Below are positions 634 to 48,014 of a stretch of DNA of 60,806 nt, one piece after another (position 1 is the stretch's first letter; every line of letters begins with the position of its first letter). Location of the stretch: the IMG/VR virus record IMGVR_UViG_3300048573_000207, positions 1 through 60,806 of that record; one strand, 5' to 3'. A program made the position numbers and the translations under genes. The notes below the pieces were generated by a model. That model saw only the letters and a program-made list of their open reading frames with translations. It was not told the DNA's origin and made no database searches. Origin of the DNA: a virus (lineage: Duplodnaviria; Caudoviricetes).

Positions 634-639
634 TAAATA
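634..639 (+). promoter_or_regulatory. T4-late-like promoter motif TAAATA (also at 6491, 18744, 19395, 21557, 31036, 46832; TAAGTA at 34763, 37246)
   Basis: Recurs in short intergenic gaps before structural and nuclease genes; resembles T4 TATAAATA. Confidence 0.65.
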
Positions 640-657
640 GGTATGGAGAAACTTTTA

Positions 658-6463: not shown

Positions 6464-6501
6464 GATATAACCCAGCTTAATAAAACTTGGTAAATAGGTG
6501 T

Positions 6502-18722: not shown

Positions 18723-18754
18723 AGCGGGTTATTTTAAATACACTAAATATCAAT

Positions 18755-31010: not shown

Positions 31011-31046
31011 CCTGCTGTAGTTTCAATCTCAATCATAAATACTTTT

Positions 31047-31787
31047 ATGAAAAAGAGAATAAATTACAGACGAATATGGGTAGCTTATCATGGCAAAATT
31101 CCCAAGGATATAGACGGGCGATCGTTTGACATACATCACTTAGATGGTAATAGTGATAACAATAGCATTGGCAATTTAATAGCTATATCAGCATACGAAC
31201 ATTATTGCATACATAGAGATAAAGGCGAGTTTGGCGCTGCTGCAATGATTGCTAGACGAATGAAAACTAAGCCTAGCGACTTGTCCGAAACTGTTAAATT
31301 GCAAATGAAAAAGTTAATCGAATCGGGCCAACATAATTTCTCGGTTAAAGGATTTGTTAGTGTCAGGGATAAAGATGGTAATAATATGCGAGTAAGTAAA
31401 GACGACCTGAGATTTATCTCAGGTGAGTTAGTTGGAGTTAACACTGGATTTGTTACTGTTAAGGATAAAGATGGTAATAATATGCGAGTTAGCAAAAACG
31501 ACGATCGTCTTAAAACAGGTGAGTTAGTTGGAGTTAATACTGGATTTGTTACTGTTAAGGATAAAGATAGTAATAGTATGCGAGTAAGTAAAGATGACCT
31601 GAGATTTATCTCAGGTGAATTAAAAAGTATCAATTGTGGGAAAATTGGATATAACCTTGGTCGAACCTGGACCCAAACAAATAAGCGTCCGACTGTAAAA
31701 TGTCCACACTGTGCTAAAGAAGGTGACATTAGCCCAATGAAACAACATCATTTCGATAATTGTAAATATAAAATAGGAATAGTATGA
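31047..31787 (+). CDS. HNH homing endonuclease with three 32-aa repeats and C-terminal CxxC
   Basis: DIHHLDGNSDNN.IGNL...EH..IH; CPHC. Confidence 0.9.
   Translation: MKKRINYRRIWVAYHGKIPKDIDGRSFDIHHLDGNSDNNSIGNLIAISAYEHYCIHRDKGEFGAAAMIARRMKTKPSDLSETVKLQMKKLIESGQHNFSVKGFVSVRDKDGNNMRVSKDDLRFISGELVGVNTGFVTVKDKDGNNMRVSKNDDRLKTGELVGVNTGFVTVKDKDSNSMRVSKDDLRFISGELKSINCGKIGYNLGRTWTQTNKRPTVKCPHCAKEGDISPMKQHHFDNCKYKIGIV
31350..31637 (+). repeat. Three ~96-nt direct repeats inside the HNH gene
   Basis: GFV(S/T)V(R/K)DKD.N.MRVSK.D.R...GEL occurs three times. Confidence 0.9.
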
Positions 31788-34175: not shown

Positions 34176-34724
34176 TTAGGAAACGGAAGGGATGTTCTCC
34201 AATAGGATGTCATTGAGAAAGCGAATACTCAACATAAGTCTTGGGCTTGCACTTTGATTTTCGATATGATGTGGAATGTCAATCTTAACTAAGGTGGGTT
34301 TGTCAATTACTTTAGTTGCTACCAGTGTTGGTTCTTCTTGCCAGTTGATCTTCAGATACTTGATAGTTTTAAATGGGCTACGAGTTAAAAAGAAGTTGCC
34401 ATCATACCAATACATCGGACCGTTGTTGCAATTTAGAATAGGAAGATTTAGCGCGGTATTAGAAGCATTTACACGAGCTGGATCAAATCCGTCAACATGC
34501 AAATCTTGTACAAAGCCTGGCTCATTGATGAACATTATAGCTGTTTTGACACTAACATCAATTCCCAGCATGTCTGCAATATCGCGTTTAATTATGCTGC
34601 CAATGTATGCTAAGTCTTCTCCTGTGAACGTTATTGCCGTAGTAAAAGTGCCATCCCATTTACTTAGACAGTAATGTTGTATAGCAGGCCAACTTGGCAA
34701 GTTGATTTCTTTGAAATATTCCAT
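34176..34724 (-). CDS. 2OG-Fe(II) oxygenase / cupin-like protein
   Basis: LHVDG...ALNLPI...PHHIEN...RLMLSIRF; TAAATA five nt before ATG 34724. Confidence 0.65.
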   Translation of the reverse strand: MEYFKEINLPSWPAIQHYCLSKWDGTFTTAITFTGEDLAYIGSIIKRDIADMLGIDVSVKTAIMFINEPGFVQDLHVDGFDPARVNASNTALNLPILNCNNGPMYWYDGNFFLTRSPFKTIKYLKINWQEEPTLVATKVIDKPTLVKIDIPHHIENQSASPRLMLSIRFLNDILLENIPSVS

Positions 34725-34773
34725 AATAATATTTATTGGCAATCTTGTTCAACAATACTTCATAAGTACTAAC

Positions 34774-37131: not shown

Positions 37132-37200
37132 TTAAATCTCCTAGGTTAAAGATGGATGTCTTCCGCAAATACTTATAGCACATTTTACCATGCGTGTAAC

Positions 37201-37229
37201 CAAAAAAAAAACGCACCTTAGGGTGCGTT
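37201..37229 (-). terminator. Intrinsic terminator
   Basis: AACGCACC-CTAA-GGTGCGTT hairpin followed by a long T run on the minus strand. Confidence 0.8.
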
Positions 37230-37257
37230 AAAAGGAGAAGGATCATAAGTAATAGAT

Positions 37258-37313
37258 GCAGCTCGCGGTGGTGGAACACCCAACTGCTCTAACGTTATAG
37301 GACAACGCCAGCA
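37258..37313 (+). ncRNA. Candidate structured cis-regulatory RNA leader, copy 1
   Basis: GCAG/CTGC, GGTG/CACC and CGTT/AACG stems; covaries with copy at 46842. Confidence 0.6.
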
Positions 37314-37952
37314 ATGATATTTATCAACAACAAATATACCAATTGGTATAATAACATAATTAGTAACGCCGCTCTAAGAATAGATTCTGGATACTCTGAA
37401 AAGCATCACATCATACCAAGGTCGTTTGGTGGCAGCAATGCTAAATCAAATCTAGTCAGACTCACTGCAAGAGAACACTTTGTATGCCATAAGCTATTGA
37501 CAAAGATGACAACAGGCACAGAAAAGAAGAAAATGCTATTGGCACTATTAATGATGTGCGTAACAAGCAAAAATCAACAACGACACAAAATAAATAGTTC
37601 CCAGTATGCACAGATCCGCGTTCAAGCAAGTAAAGCAAACAGCGGAGTCAACAATCCAATGTATGGCAGAAAGCGACCAGCTGAGGAACAACTACGAATA
37701 AATGCCACAAGCAAAGTAAACAGAGCAGCAAGTGGGCCTCGGACACATACAGAAGAAACTAAGAAAAAGTTGAGTAGCAGCCATATGGGAAAGAAACATT
37801 CTGCTGAGACAAAGGCTAATTGGAGTAAAGTTAGAAAAGGACGTGCAGGGCAGGATAATAATTCAGGCAAGCATTGGTACAATGACGGCACTAAATCATA
37901 TCTTGCAAAAGAATGCCCGGCTAATTGTGTGCCAGGCAGACTATGTTACTGA
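37314..37952 (+). CDS. HNH homing endonuclease with NUMOD3-like motifs
   Basis: EKHHIIPRSFGGSN..SNLV.LTAREHF.CH.LL; HTEETKKKLS. Confidence 0.9.
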   Translation: MIFINNKYTNWYNNIISNAALRIDSGYSEKHHIIPRSFGGSNAKSNLVRLTAREHFVCHKLLTKMTTGTEKKKMLLALLMMCVTSKNQQRHKINSSQYAQIRVQASKANSGVNNPMYGRKRPAEEQLRINATSKVNRAASGPRTHTEETKKKLSSSHMGKKHSAETKANWSKVRKGRAGQDNNSGKHWYNDGTKSYLAKECPANCVPGRLCY

Positions 37953-39170
37953 TTAATGTCGACTCTTGCCCGGTGGCACGTAGTTAGCAGTGATACCGAA
38001 CGGTGCTTTGATAGTATTGCTGCCGTGAACTACAAATAGTGTATCCGTATAGTCAGGGTCGCCCCAGCTACCAAACGGATAGCCGTCTGTAAACATAACA
38101 AGTTGATGCGGTTGGATGTCGTTATCTTTCATCCATTGCCACACACATTCAAAGCTGGTACCGCCACCACCTTGGATGTTGTATTCGCCCATGCTTCGAC
38201 CATCGTCACCAGTAAAGGTGTCTTCGTTGTAAACATCAGTGTCAAAGGTAACTACCCGCACCTTGTAACTAGTGAACTGATCCAGGCTACCTTGTACCAT
38301 GCCCAAGAAGTCTGACAACATGCGATCACAAATAGAACCTGAAGCGTCTAATGCAACAACAATATCAAGTTCTTCGCCAGGCAATTGTCCAGGCATAACT
38401 GCACCAGTATGCCAGGCCTTACGGTTAGGACGCATCCATGTGTAGTCGCTCTTGACACTGCCGGAGAACTGAATACGCAACAGGTCCTTCAAGTCCATTA
38501 CTGGAGCAGTGATGTCTTTTACAAGACGTTCAATGTCTAATGGACAGTTGCCTGCACCTGCGTTCTTTGCGGCCTGGATAGTGGCTTCGCGCCATTCGTC
38601 ACGCAAGGCTTTCTTTTCTTCCTCATTCAATTTCTTGAACTTAGGCTTGCCCTTACCTTTGCCTTCTTTGTCGCCATTGCCATCGCCATCGCCGCCCTCA
38701 TCTCCGTCACCATCCATGTCCAAGTGATCGTCAAACGGCATCTTGATAACAGTGGCGTTCTTCATCAAGTCCTCGTACACTTCGTCGGCAGTTTTGCCTT
38801 CGTACTTGCGGTCTGCTAAGATCTCAACAGCGGTAATACGGGTACCAACGTTTTCGCGGATCAACATATTGTTGATAACAAAATCACCAGCCATGTTCCA
38901 AACACCAGGATCGCGACTGCCACGCCGTGTCATGTGTTCAAAGATAATGTGCCCAAGTTCGTGTGCAAAACCAAAGATCAACTCGCCGTCGGAACACTTT
39001 TGAACAAAGTTTGAATTGTAGTAAAACTTGCGACCATCTGTTGCAATGGTCTTGCACCACTCAACTTCTTCTAGTTTCAAGCGAGCAGCCAACGGACCCC
39101 AAAAGGGATACTTGAGCAACATGCTAACACGGCTCTTAATTAAACGATCTTTTGCGGGCATTTTTGACAT
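37953..39170 (-). CDS. Metallopeptidase-VWA domain protein (DUF2201-like), MoxR partner
   Basis: HELGH zinc motif; DASGS MIDAS; GGGGTSF; FTDG. Confidence 0.85.
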   Translation of the reverse strand: MSKMPAKDRLIKSRVSMLLKYPFWGPLAARLKLEEVEWCKTIATDGRKFYYNSNFVQKCSDGELIFGFAHELGHIIFEHMTRRGSRDPGVWNMAGDFVINNMLIRENVGTRITAVEILADRKYEGKTADEVYEDLMKNATVIKMPFDDHLDMDGDGDEGGDGDGNGDKEGKGKGKPKFKKLNEEEKKALRDEWREATIQAAKNAGAGNCPLDIERLVKDITAPVMDLKDLLRIQFSGSVKSDYTWMRPNRKAWHTGAVMPGQLPGEELDIVVALDASGSICDRMLSDFLGMVQGSLDQFTSYKVRVVTFDTDVYNEDTFTGDDGRSMGEYNIQGGGGTSFECVWQWMKDNDIQPHQLVMFTDGYPFGSWGDPDYTDTLFVVHGSNTIKAPFGITANYVPPGKSRH

Positions 39171-39198
39171 AGTGACTCCTAAATTTCTTACTGTATCT

Positions 39199-39228
39199 AT
39201 TATACTGCAAACTCGTCAATGTTGTCAA
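39199..39228 (-). promoter_or_regulatory. Sigma70-type promoter for the VWA gene
   Basis: TTGACA-N18-TATAAT. Confidence 0.7.
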
Positions 39229-39355
39229 CGATTTCATCAATGACTTCGTATACCCAAGACACTGGAATTTCCAGGATAAGTGCAATGGTTGTAGGCCTGT
39301 AATCTTGCTCAAGCATGGCTTCAATTTCCAAACTTAGATTATTCATTGCACTCAT
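39200..39355 (-). CDS. Small hypothetical protein (51 aa, HTH-like), absent from the ORF track
   Basis: MSAMNNLSLEIEAMLEQDYRPTTIALILEIPVSWVYEV...; AAGGA RBS and a promoter upstream. Confidence 0.65.
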   Translation of the reverse strand: MSAMNNLSLEIEAMLEQDYRPTTIALILEIPVSWVYEVIDEIVDNIDEFAV

Positions 39356-39755
39356 TTCGGATCCTTTTGCTGTTTATGTGTATATTATACTGGAGCTTTG
39401 GTCCAACGTCAACCGTTTTTACTGGATTTTCTGTTGTTTTTTGACTACAACTTAGGTCCCAAAGCATAGCAACTTCGGGCTCCCTAAACCAAATTTTTTG
39501 CTTTGGTACAAAATCCCAATCCAGTCGCTTTAGACCTTGGGATCTGCACCATGCGGTAACTTCATTGATTGTTGTGGCTCGATCAAGAACGCGGACGGAC
39601 CAACTTTCTCGTTGTTTGCGGAGCCACTCGCTAACATCGCCCGGTGAAGGGGGCTGGTTCGTCCACACTGTGGTGTACTCCGGACCGTATAGCATTTCTG
39701 CTATTTCAACAGTCCGGGGTCTATCACTCATCTTCAACCTTCCGGGGTCAATCAC
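39339..39755 (-). CDS. Hypothetical protein
   Basis: ORF overlapping the ATPase stop codon. Confidence 0.55.
   Translation of the reverse strand: MIDPGRLKMSDRPRTVEIAEMLYGPEYTTVWTNQPPSPGDVSEWLRKQRESWSVRVLDRATTINEVTAWCRSQGLKRLDWDFVPKQKIWFREPEVAMLWDLSCSQKTTENPVKTVDVGPKLQYNIHINSKRIRNECNE
39384..39412 (-). promoter_or_regulatory. Sigma70-type promoter
   Basis: TTGACG-N17-TATAAT. Confidence 0.75.
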
Positions 39756-40849
39756 TCGTCTGTAAGCAGATTAGCGTAACGCTTGAAGAACTCTGGGAAG
39801 TTGGTCATCTTCTTGCGATCGAAAACCACCTTGTAAGACTTCAACACTGTATGAGCACCCATGATAACCATTTCTGGTTCAAAGTTCGCCATCATAAAGC
39901 CCAGCCAGTTGTCGGCGTTCTTGTTAAAGTCGTCCAACTTACCTGCTCGCTTGCCTGCTTCGTAACGAGTACGAAGTTCGTAGCTCAAGCTAGTAACCAG
40001 AGCGTATGCAGCCGACACTTCCTTGGATTTGAAAGTAGTAACTTTGCCGCTCAATACATCGCTTGGGTCAGGCAAGTCTGCGGCGTGCTTACGGTGTGCC
40101 ATAAACTTAATCGCCATACCTTCACCAACCAAGCCTGACACCATGTCTGTGTTAGCAGAGTCAGGCATGTCGTCATCGATCATGTCGCTAACAAAGCTCC
40201 AGGTACGTGGAGTAGAGAAAGCACGATCGTGTTGTGTAGGATCAAAGTTGTACAGGTCGCCTTTGAACTGCTTCAAGAAGCCCACCACATGCGGATGGAT
40301 TTCGTTCATGATAGCCCACTGTTCCCAGTCTTCGAAGTCGCAACGGATTTCCAAGTGCATGAAGCGGTTAGCCAATGGGCTTGGCATACGGTACGTAACA
40401 CCCTTGTCACCCATACGGTTACCTGCGGCAATCATAACCACGTTTTCTGGCAGTGTGTATTGACCCACCTTACGGTTCAGAATCAACTGATAAGCCGCAG
40501 CCTGAACAGCAGGAGGAGCAGAGTTCAGTTCGTCCAAGAACAAAAAGATCACATCATGCTTTGCGGCAAACTCAGCAGTAGGCAGTTCAGAAGGAGTAGC
40601 CCACTTCATAGTGTTGTCACCAGCTGAGTAGTAAGGGACACCCTTAATGTCAGTGGGATCCATCAACGCCATACGCAGGTCTACGACTGCGGAGTTGGGC
40701 CATTCTGCGGCAACTTGGTTCACCATGTCTGACTTACCAACACCTGGAGGGCCCCAAACAAACACTGGGCGGCGCTTTTGCACAGCACGGCGCAGGATGG
40801 GTTTGCATTCGCTGATCTTAACTGTACGGGTTTCTACTTGACTTGCCAT
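39752..40849 (-). CDS. MoxR-like AAA+ ATPase
   Basis: Walker A GPPGVGKS; Walker B LFLDE; AAGN; LANRF. Confidence 0.9.
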   Translation of the reverse strand: MASQVETRTVKISECKPILRRAVQKRRPVFVWGPPGVGKSDMVNQVAAEWPNSAVVDLRMALMDPTDIKGVPYYSAGDNTMKWATPSELPTAEFAAKHDVIFLFLDELNSAPPAVQAAAYQLILNRKVGQYTLPENVVMIAAGNRMGDKGVTYRMPSPLANRFMHLEIRCDFEDWEQWAIMNEIHPHVVGFLKQFKGDLYNFDPTQHDRAFSTPRTWSFVSDMIDDDMPDSANTDMVSGLVGEGMAIKFMAHRKHAADLPDPSDVLSGKVTTFKSKEVSAAYALVTSLSYELRTRYEAGKRAGKLDDFNKNADNWLGFMMANFEPEMVIMGAHTVLKSYKVVFDRKKMTNFPEFFKRYANLLTDE

Positions 40850-40885
40850 GATGATTCCTACTTAGAATTTGTTGAACATGTGTGT

Positions 40886-40914
40886 ATTATAAAGCATTTA
40901 TTTGCGATTGTCAA
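40886..40914 (-). promoter_or_regulatory. Consensus sigma70 promoter
   Basis: TTGACA-N17-TATAAT. Confidence 0.85.
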
Positions 40915-40935
40915 CAAATAAATGCATTGTGGTTT

Positions 40936-41205
40936 TTACGCAACAGCTTGTTCTTGAGCTGGCATAACTTGAGCAATGAACTCGGAAGCATCAATGGCTT
41001 CTTTGGTCATTGGGGCAGGCAATTCGATGAATTTGACATCAGTGCAACCAGCGCGGACCAGTGTACGAGTACGGCGCTTGTCGTTAGTGTAACGAACTGC
41101 ACCTTTGCCGTTTTTAGAAACAGCGTAGCCAACGTGGGTAAATGTTTCACCAGCAATAACTGATTCAACTGCGGCTTCAACTGCTTGGGCGGTGACTTTA
41201 GACAT
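40936..41205 (-). CDS. Hypothetical phage protein
   Basis: AAGGA RBS; own promoter. Confidence 0.7.
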   Translation of the reverse strand: MSKVTAQAVEAAVESVIAGETFTHVGYAVSKNGKGAVRYTNDKRRTRTLVRAGCTDVKFIELPAPMTKEAIDASEFIAQVMPAQEQAVA

Positions 41206-41258
41206 AAATTTCCTTGAGTGTGTGTTAGTGTATTGCAGAACCGTTCCGCAATGTTTAA

Positions 41259-41287
41259 ATTATACTATTGATCCTGGTCCTTGTCAA
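41259..41287 (-). promoter_or_regulatory. Consensus sigma70 promoter
   Basis: TTGACA-N17-TATAAT. Confidence 0.85.
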
Positions 41288-41429
41288 CCTGTTTTTGATG
41301 CTTTTTGCGTCTTTTGTAGGCTTTTTTGCTTTCCTCTACCTTGCCCTTAAAAGGGCTGTTGGCGTGGTACAGCTCAATAGCTCTACGCTTAGTACGCTCT
41401 AGCTTCAAAGTGATTGTGGTCCGTTTCAT
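41265..41429 (-). CDS. ArfA-like (alternative ribosome rescue factor-like) basic peptide, 54 aa, absent from the ORF track
   Basis: MKRTTITLKLERTKRRAIELYHANSPFKGKVEESKKAYKRRKKHQKQVDKDQDQ. Confidence 0.55.
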   Translation of the reverse strand: MKRTTITLKLERTKRRAIELYHANSPFKGKVEESKKAYKRRKKHQKQVDKDQDQ

Positions 41430-41438
41430 AGTGCTAGT

Positions 41439-41467
41439 ATTATATGGCGGCCCGAGCCAAAAGTCAA
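41439..41467 (-). promoter_or_regulatory. Sigma70-type promoter
   Basis: TTGACT-N17-TATAAT. Confidence 0.8.
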
Positions 41468-41533
41468 CCTGTTATTGGCGCTTTTTTGATGAAAATGTGT
41501 TGTATTTTTGCAACAAAAAAGTAGTACTTGGGT

Positions 41534-41917
41534 TTAACCTTTTCCTTGTGCTCGCCTACTCAATCCATTTAGCCAAAGAACAATATCATCGTTTACTAAA
41601 CGAATTTCCATTGCGTCTTGTTCGCCAAATACACGAAAATAACCGGTACCGTGATAGTAAGGCCAATCCAAGTGTTGCTCAAGACCTATCAAGTGCCCAG
41701 GGTTTGGACTCCAACCTGGAGGGCATTGGTACGACCAATAGCGAAAGTGGGGCTTCATTAGTTCCCAACCAAATGTTGTCAAGCGTAAGCCCTTGCGCTT
41801 GCCTGGTTGGTAGTTTTTAAAAACAGTGTACTCTGTTACCTTGGTATTTTCCCAAATGTGAGGTAAGGGATACTGAGCCAAGTACTCAGTTATCTTTGTA
41901 GCTAGTTCCTTGCTCAC
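41534..41917 (-). CDS. Hypothetical phage protein
   Basis: Coupled ORF; GLRLT..G and L..PYY motifs. Confidence 0.65.
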   Translation of the reverse strand: MSKELATKITEYLAQYPLPHIWENTKVTEYTVFKNYQPGKRKGLRLTTFGWELMKPHFRYWSYQCPPGWSPNPGHLIGLEQHLDWPYYHGTGYFRVFGEQDAMEIRLVNDDIVLWLNGLSRRAQGKG

Positions 41918-42197
41918 TGATCTTGCGTCCTTGCTTCATTTCGACAACTGAAAAATCTTCCACTTTGAATAGTTTGTTTAACTTATCAGCCAAGTTAAAC
42001 GCATGCCCTGGATTAGAAAATGAAACTTTTTTGTACTTTGGGCCTGGATAGCTGATTAAACTGTTCAGGGTGCGAAGATTAATTGGTCGGTCTTTATAAA
42101 AGACCGCATATATTGCATCAGCTGCAAGTACTTCTTCGCTCTTGTAAGTTCTTGGATTTGTATGCGTTAATAGGATGTTGGGCTTGGGTCTACTCAT
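41886..42197 (-). CDS. Conserved-type hypothetical phage protein
   Basis: MSRPKP...GPKYKKVSFSNPGHA.NLA.KLN..F. Confidence 0.7.
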   Translation of the reverse strand: MSRPKPNILLTHTNPRTYKSEEVLAADAIYAVFYKDRPINLRTLNSLISYPGPKYKKVSFSNPGHAFNLADKLNKLFKVEDFSVVEMKQGRKISEQGTSYKDN

Positions 42198-42237
42198 GAT
42201 AACTTTATTTATCAAAAGTAGATATTTATCAAACCAA

Positions 42238-42591
42238 TTACACTGTGGTCTTTGGCAACATTATAGACAGCTTGCCACCGTGTATGATAATACAGCTGGT
42301 CTCAGGATCGGCCACAGAAGTTCCTACGGCAGTAAATGTACGAGTCTTGGAATTGGCCCAAAGGGAAAACATTACAACACCGTCAATGGATCCAACAGCA
42401 ATGACATCTTCCTCGGCAGCTTTTAGGCCATTGGCCAAGTCTTGAGTTTTACCACACGTCCAGCTAGACTCAAGTTTAAAAACTTCGGCATTCGCCGGCC
42501 ATGCTAAAAAAGCAATAACTAAGATCAGTAAGGAAACAATCCCTACCTTAGTTATAAGTGGCCGCCAGCCATTCAGTATGTTGTTGAGCAT
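42238..42591 (-). CDS. Hypothetical secreted/membrane protein
   Basis: Hydrophobic N-terminus with an ANA signal-peptidase-like site. Confidence 0.6.
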   Translation of the reverse strand: MLNNILNGWRPLITKVGIVSLLILVIAFLAWPANAEVFKLESSWTCGKTQDLANGLKAAEEDVIAVGSIDGVVMFSLWANSKTRTFTAVGTSVADPETSCIIIHGGKLSIMLPKTTV

Positions 42592-43531
42592 TATCACTTG
42601 ACTTTTGTAAATTATACTTGCCACAGAACTTCATAAAGTGTGGACCAACAGATGGATTTCGAGGCTTTTGTACAGCTTCGGCAATGGTAGCGTCTAGTTC
42701 AGCTTTGATATGATCTGGCTGTGCAGTCAGATCGATAATGGCACGATTGCGTTCATAATCATCGCGCACCAGGTGCTCGACACCTTCGTGGTCGGTCCAA
42801 CGTTGTAGCATGAGATTGTTCCACATAAAGCCTTTGTTGTTGCGATCTGCAAATGCTTCTTGTAGGCCCACTTTGTTCTTGGTACCTTTGGTACGCACAC
42901 CAGGATAAGCACTAAACACGTTGTCACTTGTATCACCGCGCATGCACTTTTCAAACAGCAACCATTCTGGTTCAGGCGCTGGCTTTACTTCTTTTGTTTT
43001 CTTGTCTTTTACCGGCTGACCCTTTTCATCAAAGTAGCCTTCGTGAGTTGTGAGTACACCAGTGATGCCATTGAACAATTGCACATTAGGAGCAATCAGC
43101 TGTTCAAAGTCTGTGTCACTTGAAACGATAATATGGTTGTCGTCCTTGTGCAATTGAATCCAACGGGCAATAAAATCGTCAGCTTCGCATACAGGATTCT
43201 TAAGAACAGTTACATTGGTCTTGGTACTAATGTATTCGTAGAACTTATCAAACGATTCCCAAAACAGTTTTTCTTCTTCTGCTTCTTTAGGAGTTTGTTT
43301 AGCACGACCCTCTGCACGATTGGCCTTGTACGGCTTGTATACGTCCTTGCGCCAGCTTCGGCCTTCAAAGCAGAATACAACATGCTGGCCCTGTCGATCA
43401 CGCCATTGACGCAGGACAGAGGCCAGGATAATATGGTAGCTCATTGCAACACGCTCTTCAGGGTCACCAGAACGGATCACATGACGGGCACGGAAGAACA
43501 AGTTTGCGGCATCGACGATTAAGTAGCTCAT
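42548..43531 (-). CDS. rnh: T4 RNase H-like 5'-3' exonuclease
   Basis: IVD..N, SWRK..Y..YKANR, EADD, SSDTD and GDTSDN motifs. Confidence 0.9.
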   Translation of the reverse strand: MSYLIVDAANLFFRARHVIRSGDPEERVAMSYHIILASVLRQWRDRQGQHVVFCFEGRSWRKDVYKPYKANRAEGRAKQTPKEAEEEKLFWESFDKFYEYISTKTNVTVLKNPVCEADDFIARWIQLHKDDNHIIVSSDTDFEQLIAPNVQLFNGITGVLTTHEGYFDEKGQPVKDKKTKEVKPAPEPEWLLFEKCMRGDTSDNVFSAYPGVRTKGTKNKVGLQEAFADRNNKGFMWNNLMLQRWTDHEGVEHLVRDDYERNRAIIDLTAQPDHIKAELDATIAEAVQKPRNPSVGPHFMKFCGKYNLQKSSDNAQQHTEWLAATYN

Positions 43532-43537
43532 GTGACT

Positions 43538-43566
43538 ATTGTAGCAGTAAATTGGTTAGGTGTCAA
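43538..43566 (-). promoter_or_regulatory. Sigma70-type promoter giving a probably leaderless rnh mRNA
   Basis: TTGACA-N17-TACAAT, six nt before the ATG, no SD. Confidence 0.7.
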
Positions 43567-43570
43567 GCGA

Positions 43571-43891
43571 TTATTGGTTGCGTGTTCGATCGTTTGTTTG
43601 CATACGACCAGCGTCTGCAATAAATGATCCGGCGGCATCACTGTCCATGCTTACGTTACGGCACATGTCAGTGAACCAAGCGTCAACAATATCCTCGGGG
43701 CTGTTACCTTGATAACCACCGGAACGCAAGAACTGTACAAACGCAGGATTCCATTCCAGCTCAAAATATCCTTGTTTGGGATTGTCAGGAGCAAGATGTG
43801 CTTGAACTACGTTGACCCAAGGTTCGGGGCTATTCTTCATTGACTTTGCAGTTGGCTTTTTGATGAAAATCTTCTTTATAAATTCAAACAT
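43571..43891 (-). CDS. Hypothetical phage protein
   Basis: EPWV...GYFELEWN..F...L...GY.G...IVD.WF. Confidence 0.7.
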   Translation of the reverse strand: MFEFIKKIFIKKPTAKSMKNSPEPWVNVVQAHLAPDNPKQGYFELEWNPAFVQFLRSGGYQGNSPEDIVDAWFTDMCRNVSMDSDAAGSFIADAGRMQTNDRTRNQ

Positions 43892-43892
43892 T

Positions 43893-44087
43893 TCAAATAT
43901 CCCGTCCAAATACATTTTCTTCCCTCTTGGGTAGATCAGCTAACACTGTTTCTCGCCATTCTTTTGATTCCGAATACCATCTGGCACGCTCGTCTTGTGT
44001 GCGGTAGCATCCAATGCACATATCGTTGTCATCTGATACACAGATGCCTACGCATGGGTTAGTTAAATTTGCGTGGTCATCATTCAT
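43893..44087 (-). CDS. DUF1289-like small Cys-rich protein
   Basis: PCVGIC...CIGCYRT..E...W. Confidence 0.75.
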   Translation of the reverse strand: MNDDHANLTNPCVGICVSDDNDMCIGCYRTQDERARWYSESKEWRETVLADLPKREENVFGRDI

Positions 44088-44292
44088 TGTCGGTTCTTTT
44101 AAATGCTTTAAATAACATGGGTATTTGTTTTTCTCTATTTCTTGGCAGCTTGGGTGCAAGGCTACTTAGCTTGACAACTTCATCACTGTATGTGGTGTTA
44201 CACAGCGCACATGATTTATCTGCGGATGACATGGTAACAGTCTTTCTATTAAATGAACAAGTATGAATCCAGGTTATCATAATATTGATCAA
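44080..44292 (-). CDS. Small hypothetical protein
   Basis: Fills the gap between coupled genes; CxxC; start uncertain. Confidence 0.4.
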   Translation of the reverse strand: MINIMITWIHTCSFNRKTVTMSSADKSCALCNTTYSDEVVKLSSLAPKLPRNREKQIPMLFKAFKRTDNE

Positions 44293-44293
44293 G

Positions 44294-44674
44294 TTACTTG
44301 TTACTGTGTTTTTCTAACTCTTTGACAGTAGATTCAATAGCAGCGGAAAAGTTTACGGCACTTTGTTTATTCAGTACCATATGATGCTCTTGCTTGTATA
44401 CACCTTTGACCAAGATATCATAAACAGCTTGCAATCGTTGACTCCAGCCCTTCCAGACTGGAGTCCAGGTAGTTACATAAAAGCTGACTTCAACATCGGG
44501 AATGTCAGCATCATGTTGAACTTCAATCCACATTTTAACAGCATGATCATCGGAAGTGCAATCACATTCAACGTTGAATACTTTTGCATCTGCCCAGTCT
44601 GCGTCAATGCTGACACCCTGTGCTGGTGTTTGTGCTTTCATTGTATCTCCTCCGGTATAAGTTGTTCCGTACAT
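44294..44674 (-). CDS. Hypothetical phage protein
   Basis: Coupled to queE; CDC...H motif. Confidence 0.7.
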   Translation of the reverse strand: MYGTTYTGGDTMKAQTPAQGVSIDADWADAKVFNVECDCTSDDHAVKMWIEVQHDADIPDVEVSFYVTTWTPVWKGWSQRLQAVYDILVKGVYKQEHHMVLNKQSAVNFSAAIESTVKELEKHSNK

Positions 44675-45534
44675 TATTTAGCCCATCCATTGCCCCATAT
44701 TGTACAATGCAAACGGGGACTTATATTGTATCCTCGAACTAATGCTTCATCTGCGACTAATCTTAAATTTTTATTATACATTTCGTCTGTACCGCCAACT
44801 GGCATAACAAATACAGGACCTTTAAAGCCTGCTTCACGATACTCTGCTGTGGCAGCATCTACTTCTTCGAAGTCAGCAGCCTTGTCAACAACAAACTTCA
44901 AGTAAGTAAACCCTCGGGTTTGGTATTCCGCAACCACTTCGGGCTTGACAGCATCTGACCACTTTTCTCCACTTGCACTTAGCTTGGGACTTACACTGAA
45001 CGTAATTTGATCTTTACGCAAATGATAATCATCCATTAAGAAACGTTTAAAGTCTTCGTGTAAGTGCTGAGTACCGTTAGTTTCAAATGTAAGATTTTCT
45101 AAGTCTCGCATTTTGTTTTCGCTCAACAAGTCTGGATACAGTTGTTGCCAGCCCAACAGCGGCTCGCCCCCAGTGATAACAAGATGTACGTCATTGCCAT
45201 TGTCTTGCTTCCAGGCATGATTAGGAGTCAGCTCCAACATCTTTTCAATGGCTTGGTCTACAGTGTAGTATGGACTTAGATGCTTGAACGCAGGATGCCA
45301 TGATGCGTAACTATCGCAGCCAGTTTGTGCCAATGGTAGTTCTTCAAACTTTTTGTAAAGATGCACTACCTTGCCAATTTCATCGGGCTCCGCAGTTTTC
45401 TCGCCTGGCGGTAGGCCAAAGCCCGGACATTTAAAGTTGCAGCCAAATGTTCTAAAGAACACACTGGGCACACCAATAAAGCGGCCTTCGCCTTGTGCGC
45501 TATAAAACACTTCACTTACTTTAAATTCATTCAT
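44674..45534 (-). CDS. queE: 7-carboxy-7-deazaguanine synthase (radical SAM)
   Basis: E.FYS.QGEG, GCNFKC...CDS (expanded loop), TGGEP, ETNGT, SVSPK and PRLH motifs. Confidence 0.9.
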   Translation of the reverse strand: MNEFKVSEVFYSAQGEGRFIGVPSVFFRTFGCNFKCPGFGLPPGEKTAEPDEIGKVVHLYKKFEELPLAQTGCDSYASWHPAFKHLSPYYTVDQAIEKMLELTPNHAWKQDNGNDVHLVITGGEPLLGWQQLYPDLLSENKMRDLENLTFETNGTQHLHEDFKRFLMDDYHLRKDQITFSVSPKLSASGEKWSDAVKPEVVAEYQTRGFTYLKFVVDKAADFEEVDAATAEYREAGFKGPVFVMPVGGTDEMYNKNLRLVADEALVRGYNISPRLHCTIWGNGWAK

Positions 45535-45799
45535 AGATATTTGACCATTTCTTTAGTTTTTCAATCTTGGCTAACTTGGCAGCTTCAAGTCCTGCATCTG
45601 TTACAACACCTTTTAATTTTAACAGATCTACCATGGCAAGTAAATCACCAATTTCACCTTCTAAGTGTTGTGCATTAGTTAGGGGTTTGCCAGGCTTGAA
45701 GTTATCCAAACCAAAGCGATTGCACTTGCTTACTGCTTGCACCACTTCGGCACATTCCTCAGAAAGAATGTTCATAATTTCGTATAGTTTACTGTCCAC
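45527..45799 (-). CDS. MazG-like NTP pyrophosphohydrolase
   Basis: EECAEV.QA.SK...EIGDL. Confidence 0.75.
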   Translation of the reverse strand: MDSKLYEIMNILSEECAEVVQAVSKCNRFGLDNFKPGKPLTNAQHLEGEIGDLLAMVDLLKLKGVVTDAGLEAAKLAKIEKLKKWSNIYE

Positions 45800-45980
45800 T
45801 TTTTAATTCCATATAAGGGGCAATGTCGTTATCAAACAACTTGGCCATTTGATTCCATAATGCTCGAGCCTCGGTATCAGTCATGCCCGAGCCAATATCT
45901 TTAAAATTGTCTTTTCTTAAACCATAATCATGACGCCATGTATAACACATACTAGTGATAACTTGTTCTCTTGTTTTCAT
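45789..45980 (-). CDS. Small hypothetical protein
   Basis: Coupled ORF. Confidence 0.65.
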   Translation of the reverse strand: MKTREQVITSMCYTWRHDYGLRKDNFKDIGSGMTDTEARALWNQMAKLFDNDIAPYMELKSGQ

Positions 45981-46192
45981 GGTCTTGGAAAGTCTAATTG
46001 AAATACGTGTGCTTTGGTACCTTTTAGTGCCAATAGCATTTGTTCTTGTTGTGCATCTTCAAGGCTAGTGTAATAGCCTGGAAAGATACCTGACCCAGCA
46101 GTAGACGGGCTATGTGTAGACATTGAACCAGTTGAAGAAATGCTGGCTATAACCCAAATAGATAATGTCTCTGGTGGGTCAATTGGTTTCAT
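45977..46192 (-). CDS. Small hypothetical protein
   Basis: Coupled ORF. Confidence 0.6.
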   Translation of the reverse strand: MKPIDPPETLSIWVIASISSTGSMSTHSPSTAGSGIFPGYYTSLEDAQQEQMLLALKGTKAHVFQLDFPRP

Positions 46193-46195
46193 TAG

Positions 46196-46759
46196 TTAAA
46201 TCTCGCTGTAGTCATCAGATGACTCATTATCTTTAAGAATGCCAGACTCTTTAGCTGCATTGATAGCTTCCCGCAATGCTTCTTCAACTAATGCATTAAA
46301 TGTCATATCACGTTCGTGCGCCAACTTCATGTACTTTAGCAGTTCTTCATCAGTGAAGTCAACAGGGATACTTACTCGAGTGTCGTATTCTTCGCCGTTG
46401 ACAATAGCTGTTAACTTTTCCAAAAAGTCTTCTTCAACATCAAGATCTGTGTAGTTAACATCGTCCCATGCCTGATTGCCTAGCACACCTCGCTCAGTTG
46501 CTTCTGCTGCATGCTTGGCTTTATACTTGGGATTGATCAGTCGATATGCGCGGTCATTAGTGTAGTCGCATACTTCTACTTCGTATACTTTTTGGCTCTT
46601 GGTGCTGAACACAATGTTAGCACTCCATCCACCTGAACCATGAACTCCATTCCATGCACTCAACTGATGCGAGTTGGACCCATAACAGCTCCATCCGTAG
46701 TCGCCACCTTCGGTAATGCGATAGCCAACAATTTCCATCCATTCTTTTAAAGTCAGCAT
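46196..46759 (-). CDS. Hypothetical protein with C-terminal ribbon-helix-helix-like segment
   Basis: AAGGA RBS before ATG 46759; LAHERDMTFNALVEEALR; TTGACT-N17-TATACT upstream. Confidence 0.7.
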   Translation of the reverse strand: MLTLKEWMEIVGYRITEGGDYGWSCYGSNSHQLSAWNGVHGSGGWSANIVFSTKSQKVYEVEVCDYTNDRAYRLINPKYKAKHAAEATERGVLGNQAWDDVNYTDLDVEEDFLEKLTAIVNGEEYDTRVSIPVDFTDEELLKYMKLAHERDMTFNALVEEALREAINAAKESGILKDNESSDDYSEI

Positions 46760-46841
46760 ATAATTTCCTTTTAAATAATTATTAATATATACAGTATACA
46801 ACAAGTAATACAAGAAGTCAATAAAAATGGATAAATAAAGT

Positions 46842-46897
46842 GCCAATCGCGATACTGGACATATCCACTGGCTCTAACGCTATTAAGGAGCATCAGC
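46842..46897 (+). ncRNA. Candidate structured cis-regulatory RNA leader, copy 2
   Basis: GCCA/TGGC, GATA/TATC and GCT/AGC stems; same linkers (TCGC, TCTAAC) as copy 1. Confidence 0.6.
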
Positions 46898-47134
46898 ATG
46901 AATATTTATTCAATTTACAAAGCAACCAATATTAAAAATAGTAAATCCTATATAGGATTTGACTCGCACTGGCCGAAACGAAGATCCGAACACAAATCAG
47001 CTGCAGGCACCGGGAGACATTCTGCTAAAGGATCAAAGTGGTGGAATGATGGAATAGTGGAAGTAATGTTGCCAGAATCTCCGAAGCCATCATTCGTCAG
47101 AGGAAGGCTCAAGAAAGATTCCACTGATTCTTAA
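46898..47134 (+). pseudogene. Internally deleted GIY-YIG homing endonuclease
   Basis: SIYKATN..N.KSYIG...R..EH N-terminus joined almost directly to the WWNDG...F.RGR C-terminal motif in only 78 aa. Confidence 0.65.
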
Positions 47135-48014
47135 TCACATAGTCTTTATCCGGCATATTATCTAGGTCAATAACAATGTTAGGGTTCCAACCTGTGTCTT
47201 CGCTGTAGCCTTCGTTTTCGTAACCCCGCGGGTTACAAGTAATTAGCGTATCTCCGACATGGTACCAATGTGCGTGATGAGTATGCCCACATGTCCACAG
47301 TTTAATCTGCGGATGATCCATAATAAATTCAGTGAGGTCACTGTGGTACCCGCCGTTCATTAGGTATTGGGTTCGATACTGTTCATGTACACTTTGGAAA
47401 CTGGGACTATGATGTCCAACAACAACAAATTTCTTATCGTGTTGTTCGGCCAATACACTTCTAAAGTATTGCAATGTACGTGCATGACGACTAACAACAT
47501 CACGAGCACTCATTCGAGCGTACTCTCGCTTGTCATTGCGAATGATGCGGAAGTCGTTCATCATGCCTTCGATTGCATGCATGGTCAAGGGATCGCCTTT
47601 GTTCATGTCAGTCCACAAAGTAGCACCGATGAATGTAACATCGTCGATAACTTTGGTATCGCACTCTAAGAAGTAAATGTTAGGGAACTTTGCACATTCT
47701 TCACGTAGGTAATCAATACCAGCAAAGAACTTGCCGTGGTAAAATTCGTGATTACCAGCAACATAAACAACGTGCGGGAATTGAAAACTGCAACGCTTTA
47801 AGAAGTCACGAAAGCGAGCAACTCGTTGCATCTTACGACCGAGGTCTGCTAATGCTCCACTGCTGTATGGATCAAAGTCGGCTGCAATATGGTCATGCAA
47901 ATCCTGGGCAACCATAATGTCACCGCTCAAGATAAGAACGTCACACTTGTCATCGTTTGTGATATTGATATCAGAGAACTCCAAGTGTAAATCACTAACA
48001 AGTTTAATCTTCAT
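47109..48014 (-). CDS. Calcineurin-like metallophosphoesterase
   Basis: SDLH, GD, GNHE, HH.P, GHTH and NPRGY motifs. Confidence 0.9.
   Translation of the reverse strand: MKIKLVSDLHLEFSDINITNDDKCDVLILSGDIMVAQDLHDHIAADFDPYSSGALADLGRKMQRVARFRDFLKRCSFQFPHVVYVAGNHEFYHGKFFAGIDYLREECAKFPNIYFLECDTKVIDDVTFIGATLWTDMNKGDPLTMHAIEGMMNDFRIIRNDKREYARMSARDVVSRHARTLQYFRSVLAEQHDKKFVVVGHHSPSFQSVHEQYRTQYLMNGGYHSDLTEFIMDHPQIKLWTCGHTHHAHWYHVGDTLITCNPRGYENEGYSEDTGWNPNIVIDLDNMPDKDYVIKNQWNLS

Follow-up and report, generated by a model that had tools for sequence, protein, structure and literature searches.

Two copies of an RNA leader in a phage genome

The window analyzed here is the whole 60,806-nt stretch of a Caudoviricetes record (IMGVR_UViG_3300048573_000207). 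It contains two copies of a small RNA element, with the coordinates and letters that the original prediction had given for them (Table 1). Copy 1 precedes the gene of an HNH homing endonuclease (NUMOD3, 3.7e-08; HNH, 0.0015, below the Pfam cut-off; phrog_655 homing endonuclease, 4.4e-49), which is antisense to both neighbours and tail to tail with the stop of a DUF2201 gene (37953-39170, - strand). Copy 2 precedes a short ORF (GIY-YIG, 0.00098, below the Pfam cut-off; phrog_314 and phrog_20015), probably a nuclease remnant, which overlaps the 3' end of a metallophosphoesterase gene (47109-48014, - strand). Both nucleases are + strand genes among - strand genes, as had been noted. The terminator past copy 1 would stop both the transcript of the flanking operon and a leftward RNA, if any, from that copy; weak Rfam matches at this site correspond to the terminator portions of sRNA models. 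The sigma-70-like promoter past copy 2, identified by consensus match alone (10 of 12 positions), would drive the following - strand gene, with an ATG that we read at about 46757.

Table 1. Features of the two element copies and their surroundings in the window
Feature	Position	Strand	Remarks
Copy 1 element	37258-37313	+	covariance model
Forward late-promoter-like box TAAGTA	37246-37251	+	6 nt before P1 first base
Long bulged hairpin	37258-37287	+	comparative fold; loop GTGGAA
P1	37258-37262 with 37283-37287	+	C37262/A37283 mismatch on +, U·G pair on -
Junction pairs	T37263-A37282, G37265-C37281	+	bulged C37264, C37266
P2	37267-37270 with 37277-37280	+
Second hairpin, P4-P3	37289-37311	+	loop ATAGGAC with SD; two A·C mismatches on +, G·U pairs on -
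P4	37289-37292 (CTAA) with 37308-37311 (CCAG)	+
P3	37293-37296 with 37304-37307	+
Nuclease gene	37314-37952	+	212-aa HNH homing endonuclease with NUMOD3 motif
Inverted box TAAATA	37318-37323	-	predicted promoter; nuclease codons 2-4
Leftward start, G	about 37312	-	predicted; base of P4'/P3' hairpin
Strong intrinsic terminator	37210-37229	-	8-bp stem then ten-T run; ~25 nt past copy 1
Copy 2 element	46842-46897	+	covariance model
Forward late-promoter box TAAATA	46832-46837	+	4 nt before P1 first base
Long bulged hairpin	46842-46872	+	comparative fold; loop CTGGACA
P1	46842-46846 with 46868-46872	+	A46846/C46868 mismatch on +
Junction pairs	T46847-A46867, G46849-C46866	+	bulged C46848, C46850
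P2	46851-46854 with 46862-46865	+
Second hairpin, P4-P3	46874-46896	+	loop ATTAAGG with SD
P4	46874-46877 (CTAA) with 46893-46896 (TCAG)	+
P3	46879-46881 with 46889-46891	+
Nuclease gene	46898-47134	+	78-aa ORF; GIY-YIG N-terminal part only
Inverted box TAAATA	46903-46908	-	inferred promoter; codons 2-4
Leftward start, G	about 46897	-	predicted
Sigma-70-like promoter TTGACT-17-TATACT	46793-46821	-	consensus match

A family of leaders linked to homing endonuclease genes

Under a covariance model built from relatives, the scores were 74.9 bits for copy 1 and 82.7 bits for copy 2, compared with 14.1 bits for the next-best place in the window (both strands, filters off), so that the window holds exactly two copies. 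A strict sequence pattern found the element in 6 viral contigs, and a relaxed one in at least 119 stretches (124 occurrences were viewed and only one, L089, was set aside, by eye). The covariance model gave 112 matches in 99 sources, 11 of them outside the pattern. In all, uncultured viral contigs yield more than 120 copies, as many as 12 of them in one 142-kb fragment; the covarying leader is real and not limited to the window. The carriers are uncultured giant freshwater phages; the element was absent from three cultured relatives. Dassa et al. 2009 (PMC2677866) may already have seen part of it.

In all copies examined, the element runs directly up to the start codon of a free-standing homing endonuclease gene; these nucleases come from at least five HNH or GIY-YIG lineages. 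Most of the 109 distinct downstream ORFs start like an HNH or GIY-YIG nuclease, with representatives matching phrog_655, phrog_314 and phrog_12324, and Pfam HNH, HNH_3, GIY-YIG and NUMOD3; six complete ORFs are shorter than 20 aa (remnants), and four others run out of the locus before reaching 20 aa. A single leader haplotype (P1 GTAGT, P2 GGAA) was found ahead of five nuclease classes, and leaders with decayed ORFs of 13-17 aa retain the fold and both boxes described below. In five large records with 19 copies, a nuclease ORF follows from an ATG in 17; the nuclease reading starts only from TTG or GTG in L131 and L133. Neither in the window nor among these 19 copies did we find an element without an adjoining nuclease start. 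By crude ORF calling, 79 of the 103 copies with an upstream ORF have that neighbour on the opposite strand and 24 have it on the same strand, and both flanks are opposite in 55/112.

Covariation of the fold

In a seed of 42 sequences, 94.7% of the cells were paired, versus 77.6% in shuffles, and pairing fell to 27-45% when the partner was slid by 1-3 columns. The compensatory changes claimed for all three stems from the two copies held in the family: the seed had 132 double-change cells versus 37.9 in shuffles, and none of 500 shuffles reached 132, pointing to strong covariation in P1, P2 and P3. The SD sequence lies within the loop and 3' arm of the last hairpin, in line with the original prediction. 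Single-sequence folding gave no thermodynamic signal (z from -0.49 to +0.63); the support for the fold is comparative, not thermodynamic.

Two further claims were not supported. The linkers thought to be invariant include a fourth helix, P4, in which CUAA pairs with UCAG; its double changes are of two separate kinds, seen in 1 and 3 of 64 sequences. TCGC and CTCTAAC were imposed by the search patterns, and hence fixed among the copies found with them; in the pattern-free copies they vary, and do so compensatorily (UCGC..CCA becomes CCAC..CCG, and G10-C27 becomes A-U). Bulged C9 and C11 are kept although the flanking pairs covary. The pseudoknot proposed between the TGG loop and the bases beside the start codon had no double change in its four pairs in the 42-sequence seed, and the UGG loop is swapped for unrelated loops in several copies while its UCAGCA partner is unchanged.

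These results bear on the possibility, also raised in the original prediction, that the nuclease genes carry a small self-cleaving ribozyme or a riboswitch aptamer. The element is compact, with several helices and highly conserved bases outside them, as such an RNA might be; yet most of the conserved linkers are ordinary helix, the one proposed tertiary contact fails, and the strand asymmetry described below points away from the mRNA strand. Rfam families include the known small ribozymes and riboswitch classes, and none of the 4227 families of Rfam 15 matched the element at gathering score or at E up to 10. A ribozyme or aptamer is, on this evidence, highly improbable.

The helices are better kept on the opposite strand

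Near-perfect pairing of the helices is confined to the strand opposite the nuclease. Across 64 sequences and 19 pairs, counted over related sequences and hence not as independent events, standard pairs make up 99.0% on the antisense strand versus 88.3% on the sense strand, with 136 versus 6 G·U pairs; on the antisense strand 17 of the 19 pairs show double changes, which no shuffle of 500 reached. Likewise, 111 unique sequences had 3 G·U versus 124 A·C cells on the + strand, the latter clustered at a few positions, some of them helix ends (the outermost P3 pair accounts for 89 of the 124). Among 28 P1 haplotypes, A·C occurs in 15 and G·U in none. P4 has an A·C mismatch on the sense strand in all 64 sequences, which is G·U on the other strand. 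For one alignment, RNAalifold put the sense strand at -12.8 kcal/mol and the antisense strand at -21.1. With P1-P3 taken on their own, the strands are about equal (-9.1 versus -9.0 kcal/mol), the sense strand being more stable in 80/111; the antisense advantage stems from P4 and the pair counts, not from P1-P3 energies.

The asymmetry weighs against the reading in which the fold matters only on the nuclease mRNA. There, the 5' hairpin would stabilise a late transcript, P4-P3 would partly hide the SD, and the unpaired bases (the two bulged C's, the U between the hairpins, the CA before the AUG and the UAUUUA after it) would contact a small ligand or a factor of phage or host origin. By position the element is indeed the nuclease mRNA's 5' UTR, containing both SD and AUG, and the predicted start is the first base of P1; the persistence of the bulged C's and the equal P1-P3 energies also suit this reading. 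It leaves unexplained the near absence of G·U where A·C is common, the universal P4 mismatch, and a promoter-spaced hexamer within codons 2-4 in all three frames (see below), and Rfam yielded no riboswitch or protein-binding leader match. We regard a sense-only leader as unlikely, while still a serious contender.

Paired promoter-like boxes

The late-like box reported 4-6 nt upstream (6 nt in copy 1, 4 nt in copy 2) is a family feature: TAA[AG]TA precedes the element in 119/122 copies, with a spacer to the first base of P1 of 5 nt in 90 of 119 and of 3, 4 or 6 nt in 16, 5 and 5 copies, respectively. An inverted TAAATA box, which the original prediction had overlooked along with the better-kept fold on the opposite strand, is also present in 119/122. 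It lies 4 nt past CAGCA in 98/119, at nuclease codons 2-4, and it occurs in all three reading frames (73, 21 and 16 of 110), so it does not reflect a coding constraint. Both boxes are followed by N4-T-G, with G at six bases past the box in 91/119 forward and 99/119 inverted copies, and T just before it in 105/119 and 102/119. If transcription starts 6 nt past each box, the rightward mRNA would begin at the first base of P1 and the leftward RNA at the first base of P4'/P3'; the ~57 nt between the predicted starts fold into the two covarying hairpins, P1-junction-P2 and P4-P3.

TAAATA-N5-ATG marks the start of the long ORF in four window genes (6491, 18744, 31036 and 34735 on the - strand), which fits a start 6 nt past the box. 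TAAATA is scarcer in the window than in shuffles (31 copies versus 53.6 +/- 6.6), so the hexamer behaves like a signal. With a hexamer of 6 nt as its basis, the identification of the boxes as promoters is weak. Contigs from three RNA runs, data that carry neither strand nor ends, were mostly 90-95% relatives and left the HNH region uncovered.

In almost every copy the hexamers are each other's complement, which recalls the timing switch of I-TevI, segB and mobE in T4. AUAAAUA would pair with UAUUUAU in codons 2-4 (helix P0), locking the start region on early or middle read-through transcripts, while late transcripts would begin inside P0 and be translatable. Such a mechanism is established for T4 and Aeh1 nucleases (PMC2988022) and was invoked by Dassa et al. 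for metagenomic free-standing nucleases (PMC2677866), and an 85-nt fold of copy 2 predicts P0. Against it, covariation does not extend beyond the hexamer, the four flanking positions on each side being at shuffled level (e.g. 0.58 vs 0.57); the only box variants are 11 cases of A·C and two of G·U, with compensated pairs absent; and P0 is weak, with six A-U pairs closing ~70 nt. The predicted late start lies upstream of every covarying helix, so that all would be retained in late transcripts, and most cassettes lack a same-strand upstream gene for read-through. A switch of this type appears improbable.

The opposite-strand fold could instead serve the flanking genes, as a terminator or 3'-end stabiliser on the operon RNA ahead of the next gene's promoter, a joint that the cassette would carry to limit harm to its host phage. 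Most cassettes sit within operons of the other strand. Composite terminator/promoter motifs of this kind, PeSLs, are described in T4-like phages (PMC4122927); they sit between ordinary genes, whereas the element adjoins nuclease starts. The predominance of opposite-strand neighbours is consistent with this reading, as are the sigma-70-like promoter past copy 2 and the GTCAA next to the forward box in many relatives (TTGAC when read from the opposite strand), seen by eye and uncounted. The antisense long hairpin (mean -9.3 kcal/mol) is followed by at least 5 T within an 8-nt window in 106/111 copies; this tail is mostly the complement of the forward box and largely a by-product. In favour of this reading, L033, L059 and L117, which lack the forward box, still have an A-rich run in its place.

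Bulged stems are poor terminators, and a simple terminator scan passed over the element. Beyond copy 1, at a distance of 25 nt, lies a native terminator of much better quality, and a terminator would not need the conserved first hairpin, P4'/P3'. Service to flanking genes also leaves unexplained the inverted TAAATA with a fold starting exactly 6 nt past it, and no element lacking an adjoining nuclease start was found in the window or among the 19 copies of the five large records. This explanation seems to us rather unlikely.

A candidate sense/antisense control module

Taken together, the inverted box and the better fold on the opposite strand make a sense/antisense pair the likelier mechanism, in place of a ribozyme or a switch confined to the sense strand. 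The original interpretation is partly supported: a portable covarying RNA is shared by unrelated nucleases, as proposed, while a translational switch acting purely on the sense strand is less likely than such a pair. We tentatively favour, at somewhat less than an even chance, the view that the element heads a portable expression cassette for free-standing homing endonuclease genes and acts as a convergent-promoter sense/antisense control module.

In this proposal the leftward box would fire late, giving a stable antisense RNA of ~70 nt (~110 nt for copy 1, if extended to the native terminator). Its complementarity to the nuclease 5' UTR would be complete, covering the SD and ending 1-2 nt before the AUG. 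Pairing would block ribosome binding and perhaps trigger duplex cleavage, and convergent transcription could add interference. The mRNA helices, weakened by A·C mismatches, would half-bury the SD as a second, milder brake. Perfect complementarity in cis offers no reason for unpaired bases, among them the two bulged C's, to stay conserved from copy to copy.

The proposed module is of the same kind as IS10 RNA-IN/RNA-OUT and IS200 tnpA/art200; in IS200, a cis-antisense sRNA lies opposite the 5' UTR, and the mRNA also folds so as to sequester the SD (PMC4513863). Phage homing endonucleases offer a precedent too, in CfrI, an antisense RNA that spans such a gene (PMC2984593). The net outcome would be low, late-only synthesis of a potentially harmful nuclease. 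This small, highly conserved folded element precedes many unrelated selfish nuclease genes, and the better preservation of its fold on the opposite strand suggests an antisense RNA that restrains nuclease production.

Distribution of the leader family

Both copies of the folded leader were present in the window with exactly the sequence of the original prediction. A strict pattern made from the bases common to the two retrieved 6 viral contigs, with 4 new diverged copies, each after an ATAAATA-like box and immediately before an ATG. A relaxed pattern returned at least 119 stretches; 124 relaxed-pattern occurrences were inspected by eye, a single one (L089) was judged unrelated, and 101 unique sequences were left, 42 of which were used to build a covariance model (R1). 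R1 gave the two window copies 82.7 and 74.9 bits and found no third copy in the window (next-best site at most 14.1 bits). In a covariance-model search, a step proposed with the original prediction, R1 identified 112 copies from 99 sources, 11 of them missed by the pattern. Five large records contained 1, 1, 2, 3 and 12 copies, the last all within a single 142-kb fragment.

The comparison with Rfam that had also been suggested yielded no family for the leader, as the whole window had 0 matches to Rfam 15 at gathering score. With E values up to 10, the only matches in 37200-37360 were - strand ones on the adjacent terminator or reaching across it, and a 7.8-bit CrcZ match downstream; three long sRNA models also extended over the element, scoring no more than 16.9 bits where their gathering scores are 50-100. 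The families of Rfam 15 include small ribozyme and riboswitch classes, and we consider it extremely unlikely that the leader is a ribozyme, which had been among the first guesses, or a riboswitch.

No cultured phage in the collection matched either locus by megablast, and blastn against about 50,000 records gave only chance matches of 23-26 nt for copy 2 (E about 8) and nothing for a near-consensus copy. Judged by the ATPase, Pseudomonas phage PA5oct and its kin (49% identity) come closest to this virus among cultured phages; Phosso and Atu_ph07 are next. R1 found no copy in PA5oct, Phosso or Atu_ph07 (maximum 19.5 bits), and its best match among the three, in Phosso, lacked the motif on reading. 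Applied to 185,579 prokaryote species genomes, the pattern returned 26 stretches, of which only two scored as true copies (L171, 78.1 bits; L174, 70.1 bits); since both are short contigs placed in MAG bins, we draw no host inference from them.

DNA of the window was present in 21 sequencing runs (guessed to be DNA, labelled freshwater metagenome). Three RNA runs contained 6-7% of the sampled words of the window, as contigs without strand, start or end, and RNA cover of the bin with the HNH gene was zero in these contig-level runs, which is uninformative. In one RNA run (X24), contigs cover the 3' portion of copy 2, beyond which their sequence differs; they show leader-like sequence inside an RNA library and nothing further.

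Fold and covariation

Covariation is strong in the three stems first proposed, P1 (5 bp), P2 (4 bp) and P3 (3-4 bp). In the seed alignment 94.7% of the stem cells are paired, against 77.6% in shuffles, and there are 132 double-change cells against 37.9, a value reached by 0 of 500 shuffles; in controls with slid partners, pairing drops to 27-45%. RNAalifold added two junction pairs, U8-A28 and G10-C27, leaving two C's bulged. Since these pairs become C-G and A-U in copies found without the pattern, and thus covary, P1, the junction and P2 form a single long bulged hairpin.

Two further parts of the original prediction had to be revised. The linkers taken to be invariant instead form a fourth helix, P4, in which CUAA (after P1) pairs with (U/C)CAG (before the start codon) and closes P3; its support consists of two separate kinds of double change, in 1 and 3 of the 64 sequences. 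The proposed pseudoknot between the P2 loop and YCAG showed zero double changes, the loop varying without compensation, and several copies have unrelated P2 loops while UCAGCA is unchanged. The SD does lie inside the last hairpin, in the P3 loop and 3' arm, as predicted. Folding of single sequences gave z-scores from -0.49 to +0.63; this thermodynamic signal was absent and was dropped as evidence.

Late-type boxes on both strands

A forward TAA[AG]TA box precedes P1 in 119 of 122 copies, with a 5-nt spacer in 90 of the 119. The late-type hexamer is TAAATA; copy 1 has TAAGTA. The box is followed by four variable bases, T (105/119) and G (91/119), and with this G P1 begins. A second TAAATA, in inverted orientation, is situated 3-4 nt past CAGCA, within nuclease codons 2-4, and on its own strand it is again followed by four bases, T (102/119) and G (99/119), here at the base of the P4'/P3' hairpin. 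Relative to the nuclease ORF, the inverted box is found in each of the three frames (73, 21 and 16 of 110), which a coding constraint does not account for. In three loci (L033, L059 and L117) the forward TAAATA is absent and an A-rich ..CAACAAAAATG-type sequence stands in its place; their opposite strand has a T run followed by TTGAC, and the inverted box is retained.

The same hexamer stands five nucleotides ahead of the ATG of four long ORFs of the window (see table), which, from sequence, suggests leaderless late mRNAs in this phage. Such genes would fit transcription starting 6 nt past the box. TAAATA is depleted in the window (31 occurrences against 53.6 +/- 6.6 in shuffles). The geometry of box and start also fits the T4 late promoter TATAAATA, which we take to be centred near -10.

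In phage T4 (I-TevI, I-TevII, I-TevIII and segB) and in Aeh1 (mobE), a late promoter is embedded in a hairpin that sequesters the ribosome binding site, according to the relevant passages of the source (PMC2988022). These cases share with the leader a late promoter directly upstream of the nuclease ORF and RNA structure at the ribosome binding site. There, however, the promoter is within the inhibitory hairpin and the late RNA escapes it, whereas in the leader the predicted start precedes every covarying helix; a helix P0 joining the two boxes found no support, its flanking positions pairing at chance and box variants being uncompensated. A T4-type switch also needs read-in on the same strand, but 79 copies of the leader have an upstream neighbour on the opposite strand, against 24 with one on the same strand (crude ORF calling). 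That the leader is a classical T4 switch with its promoter in the hairpin is therefore very unlikely. As far as the source describes them, the T4 and Aeh1 hairpins are gene-specific, while the leader is one conserved family over at least five nuclease lineages, and most of its cassettes, by the same crude ORF calling, are antisense to their neighbours.

Strand asymmetry and a candidate antisense RNA

An A·C mismatch on one strand is a G·U pair on the other. Read on the sense strand, that of the nuclease, the helices have A·C in 124 cells and G·U in 3 across 111 unique sequences, and A·C occurs in 15 of 28 P1 haplotypes and G·U in none, counts that represent non-independent events because the sequences are related. 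In a 64-sequence alignment of the antisense strand, 99.0% of 1211 cells are standard pairs and 17 of 19 pairs show double changes, every measure beating 500 of 500 shuffles; the same 19 pairs read on the sense strand are 88.3% standard, with 6 G·U against 136 on the antisense strand. One pair of P4 is G·U in 64 of 64 antisense sequences, and thus an invariant A·C mismatch on the mRNA. On the same alignment, RNAalifold gave -21.1 kcal/mol for the antisense and -12.8 for the sense strand. The long hairpin of the antisense strand is followed by a T-rich tail (five or more T among 8 nt, in 106 of 111), which is largely the complement of the forward box.

The best fit to these sequence patterns, which we hold tentatively and at somewhat less than an even chance, is a module of convergent promoters making sense and antisense RNAs. 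The nuclease mRNA would begin at P1, and a short stable antisense RNA would begin at P4'/P3', where geometry places its predicted start (37312 and 46897) 1-2 nt before the ATG. The antisense RNA would span the entire 5' UTR, including the SD, and end at the T-rich tail of the long hairpin or at the next terminator, while the mRNA's own fold, weakened by A·C, would hide the SD only partly. Two observations speak against an antisense RNA: energies computed from P1-P3 only are equal between strands, and the A·C cells are clustered at few positions. A leader that acts on the sense strand only, by binding a factor, is unlikely in our judgement.

In giant phages, the antisense RNAs might form a family of about 70 nt, made late and acting in cis and in trans to control homing endonuclease copy number genome-wide, a possibility that we regard as doubtful. 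It would imply one antisense RNA per nuclease cassette, a dozen or more per genome, whose conserved 5' GCUGAU, GUUAGAG and anti-SD loop would permit action on all leader-bearing nuclease mRNAs, comparable to the multicopy inhibition of IS10. Such cross-talk would explain why the stems drift by compensation while the segments of contact between copies are fixed. In this scheme, late transcription of the adjacent phage gene might come from the outward-facing promoter as well.

Nucleases behind the leader and genomic setting

In every copy examined, the leader directly adjoins the start codon of a nuclease or what remains of one. The majority of the 109 distinct downstream ORFs begin nuclease-like; 6 are complete but do not reach 20 aa, and 4 leave the locus within 20 aa. 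In the large records, 19 of 19 copies abut nuclease-like ORFs, two of them only via TTG or GTG starts. A rough motif classification of 110 downstream ORFs gave GIY-YIG type A (36 copies), HNH of the phrog_655-like kind (25), GIY-YIG type B (18), other GIY-YIG (15), HNH_3-like (6) and short or unclear ORFs (10). Pfam and PHROG matches of representatives back the HNH, HNH_3 and phrog_314 classes; types A and B carry a GIY..YIG motif seen by eye, type A matching only phrog_15526 (function unknown) and type B having no match in Pfam or PHROG. One leader haplotype is found before five classes, so leaders and nuclease ORFs have recombined repeatedly. Five solo leaders (L039, L084, L088 and the - strand copies of L043 and L123) are followed by an ORF of just 13-17 codons and retain an intact fold and both boxes, reflecting either recent decay of the nuclease or maintenance of the element for its own sake.

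The window is estimated to be 18% complete, suggesting a full genome of roughly 300 kb or more. Its genes lie on the + strand from 1 to about 32.4 kb, including very large structural-type ORFs, and nearly all on the - strand beyond, with DNA-metabolism and auxiliary genes (a MoxR-type ATPase, a DUF2201 metallopeptidase/VWA protein, a 5'-3' exonuclease, a QueE-like radical SAM enzyme and a metallophosphoesterase). Among these there are three + strand ORFs, two of which are the leader-bearing nucleases; both are antisense to their neighbours, as originally noticed. The insertion of copy 1 separates the DUF2201 stop codon from the operon terminator; copy 2 is flanked on one side by the end of the metallophosphoesterase gene and on the other by a sigma-70-like promoter for the next gene. 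Across the family, both flanks are opposite to the cassette in 55 of 112 copies (crude ORF calling), and the co-oriented cassettes include insertions beside terminase genes. In L103 (4327-6863, -), the large terminase gene is split into Terminase_6N and Terminase_6C parts around a leader with a GIY-YIG nuclease; the N part ends in a short CFDGST... stretch and the C part opens with an intein-like stretch.

R1 found no leader at the window nuclease genes at 31047 (HNH_3), 55400 (treble-clef type) and 59775 (NUMOD3), and this phage thus has at least two kinds of nuclease front end. The tandem repeats of the HNH_3 gene probably encode repeated DNA-binding modules.

Features of the window, with positions and strands
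Feature	Position	Strand	Remarks
Leader copy 1	37258-37313	+	
HNH/NUMOD3 homing endonuclease, 212 aa	37314-37952	+	behind copy 1
Operon terminator	37229-37210		beside copy 1
Leader copy 2	46842-46897	+	
GIY-YIG N-terminal remnant, 78 aa	46898-47134	+	behind copy 2; overlaps metallophosphoesterase gene end
Sigma-70-like promoter	46821-46793	-	beside copy 2
NUMOD3-repeat nuclease-type ORF	3-548		window end; without leader
NUMOD3-repeat nuclease-type ORF	59775-60380	-	window end; without leader
Treble-clef/DUF7836 ORF	55400-56320	+	without leader
HNH_3 endonuclease gene	31047-31787		
Three tandem 96-nt repeats	31350-31637		82-83% identical; in HNH_3 gene
TAAATA-N5-ATG sites	6491-6504, 18744-18757, 31036-31049	+	long-ORF start
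TAAATA-N5-ATG site	34722-34735	-	long-ORF start
Fifth box-ATG gene	634-645		3-nt spacer
Perfect or near-perfect sigma-70 promoters (TTGACA-17-TATAAT)	39190-39228, 39384-39412, 40886-40914, 41259-41287, 41439-41467, 43538-43566	-	
-35 box within 12-bp stem-loop	40894-40925		resembles early promoter/stem-loop cassettes (PeSLs) of T4-like phages
11 overlapping copies, 9-nt period (GGY TAY GGN)	21185-21328		Gly-Tyr-Gly repeat in ORF 20504-21529
Single 2900-aa ORF	10020-18722	+	in structural block

The setting bears on another explanation, in which the element is a terminator or insulator on the opposite strand that serves the flanking genes, like the promoter-stem-loop modules (PeSLs) of T4-like phages. 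PeSLs, in the relevant parts of their description, are composite cassettes of terminator and promoter with a stem-loop and, like the leader, short repeated conserved modules in plastic regions and possible recombination joints (PMC4122927). The - strand of copy 2 resembles them, having a stem-loop and then the sigma-70-like site, while copy 1 has a terminator instead. However, the PeSLs described there carry early or middle promoters and lie between ordinary ORFs (PMC4122927), whereas the leader has late-type boxes, two hairpins, fixed sequence features and an adjoining nuclease start or remnant in every copy examined. We therefore consider a PeSL-like role quite unlikely.

Discussion

Among the selfish genes of large phages, homing endonucleases take first place, and to our knowledge the control that keeps them harmless is known only case by case. 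RNA structure with a late promoter before these genes is an established theme, as the parts of the literature concerned with it attest (PMC2988022). In the portions of their article that deal with such loci, Dassa et al. 2009 described free-standing endonucleases of metagenomes that are preceded by hairpins and by two complementary motifs, the hairpins being found in 15 of 16 5' UTRs, 10 of them with TATAAATA (PMC2677866). Like the leader loci, theirs are metagenomic and phage-like, with GIY-YIG among the nucleases, and the split terminase of L103 has their "fractured gene" arrangement, although terminase is not among the hosts of fractured genes named in those portions. They give single RNAfold hairpins; the same portions mention neither covariation nor a second hairpin, an inverted box or an asymmetry between strands, and the word "antisense" is absent from the text (PMC2677866). 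Dassa et al. may thus have seen part of the leader element.

A single earlier case of an antisense RNA opposite a phage homing endonuclease gene, with which it is co-expressed, is CfrI of the T4-like cyanophage S-PM2, according to the relevant passages of its report (PMC2984593). Compared by that description, CfrI is about 225 nt long and connects the nuclease gene to psbA; a leader-like fold or promoter geometry is unstated there. In the full-text literature, supplements apart, and in Rfam, we found no description of the four-helix family fold or the inverted second box, nor of sharing by at least five nuclease lineages, of the strand asymmetry or of antisense RNA at the leaders.

The transposon IS10 restrains its transposase by antisense RNA (RNA-IN/RNA-OUT). 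In IS10 and in IS200 (tnpA/art200), as in the proposed reading of the leader with convergent promoters, the harmful enzyme of a selfish DNA is held low, and an outward promoter close to the gene's 5' end makes a short stable RNA whose sequence complements the SD and the start region. IS200 has a second brake beside art200, an mRNA fold that sequesters the SD, as the relevant section of its report has it (PMC4513863). In contrast to these systems, the leader serves a homing endonuclease of a lytic phage instead of a transposase, its two predicted promoters are late-type boxes of the phage, the overlap would take in the 5' UTR from end to end, the antisense RNA is itself a prediction, and there is no sequence or Rfam similarity.

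The leader looks like a single portable control module shared by five or more lineages of nuclease that are unrelated to one another. It abounds in uncultured giant phages of fresh water, and neither Rfam nor three cultured relatives contain it. It is also a sequence tag with which free-standing nuclease cassettes, including those in fractured genes, can be found in metagenomes. If the antisense reading is true, the element would be a compact late-promoter and riboregulator part for phage engineering and a clean natural case of G·U versus A·C, in which one segment folds strongly on one strand and weakly on the other, and it would extend transposon-style antisense control, as in IS10 and IS200, to the homing endonucleases of phages.
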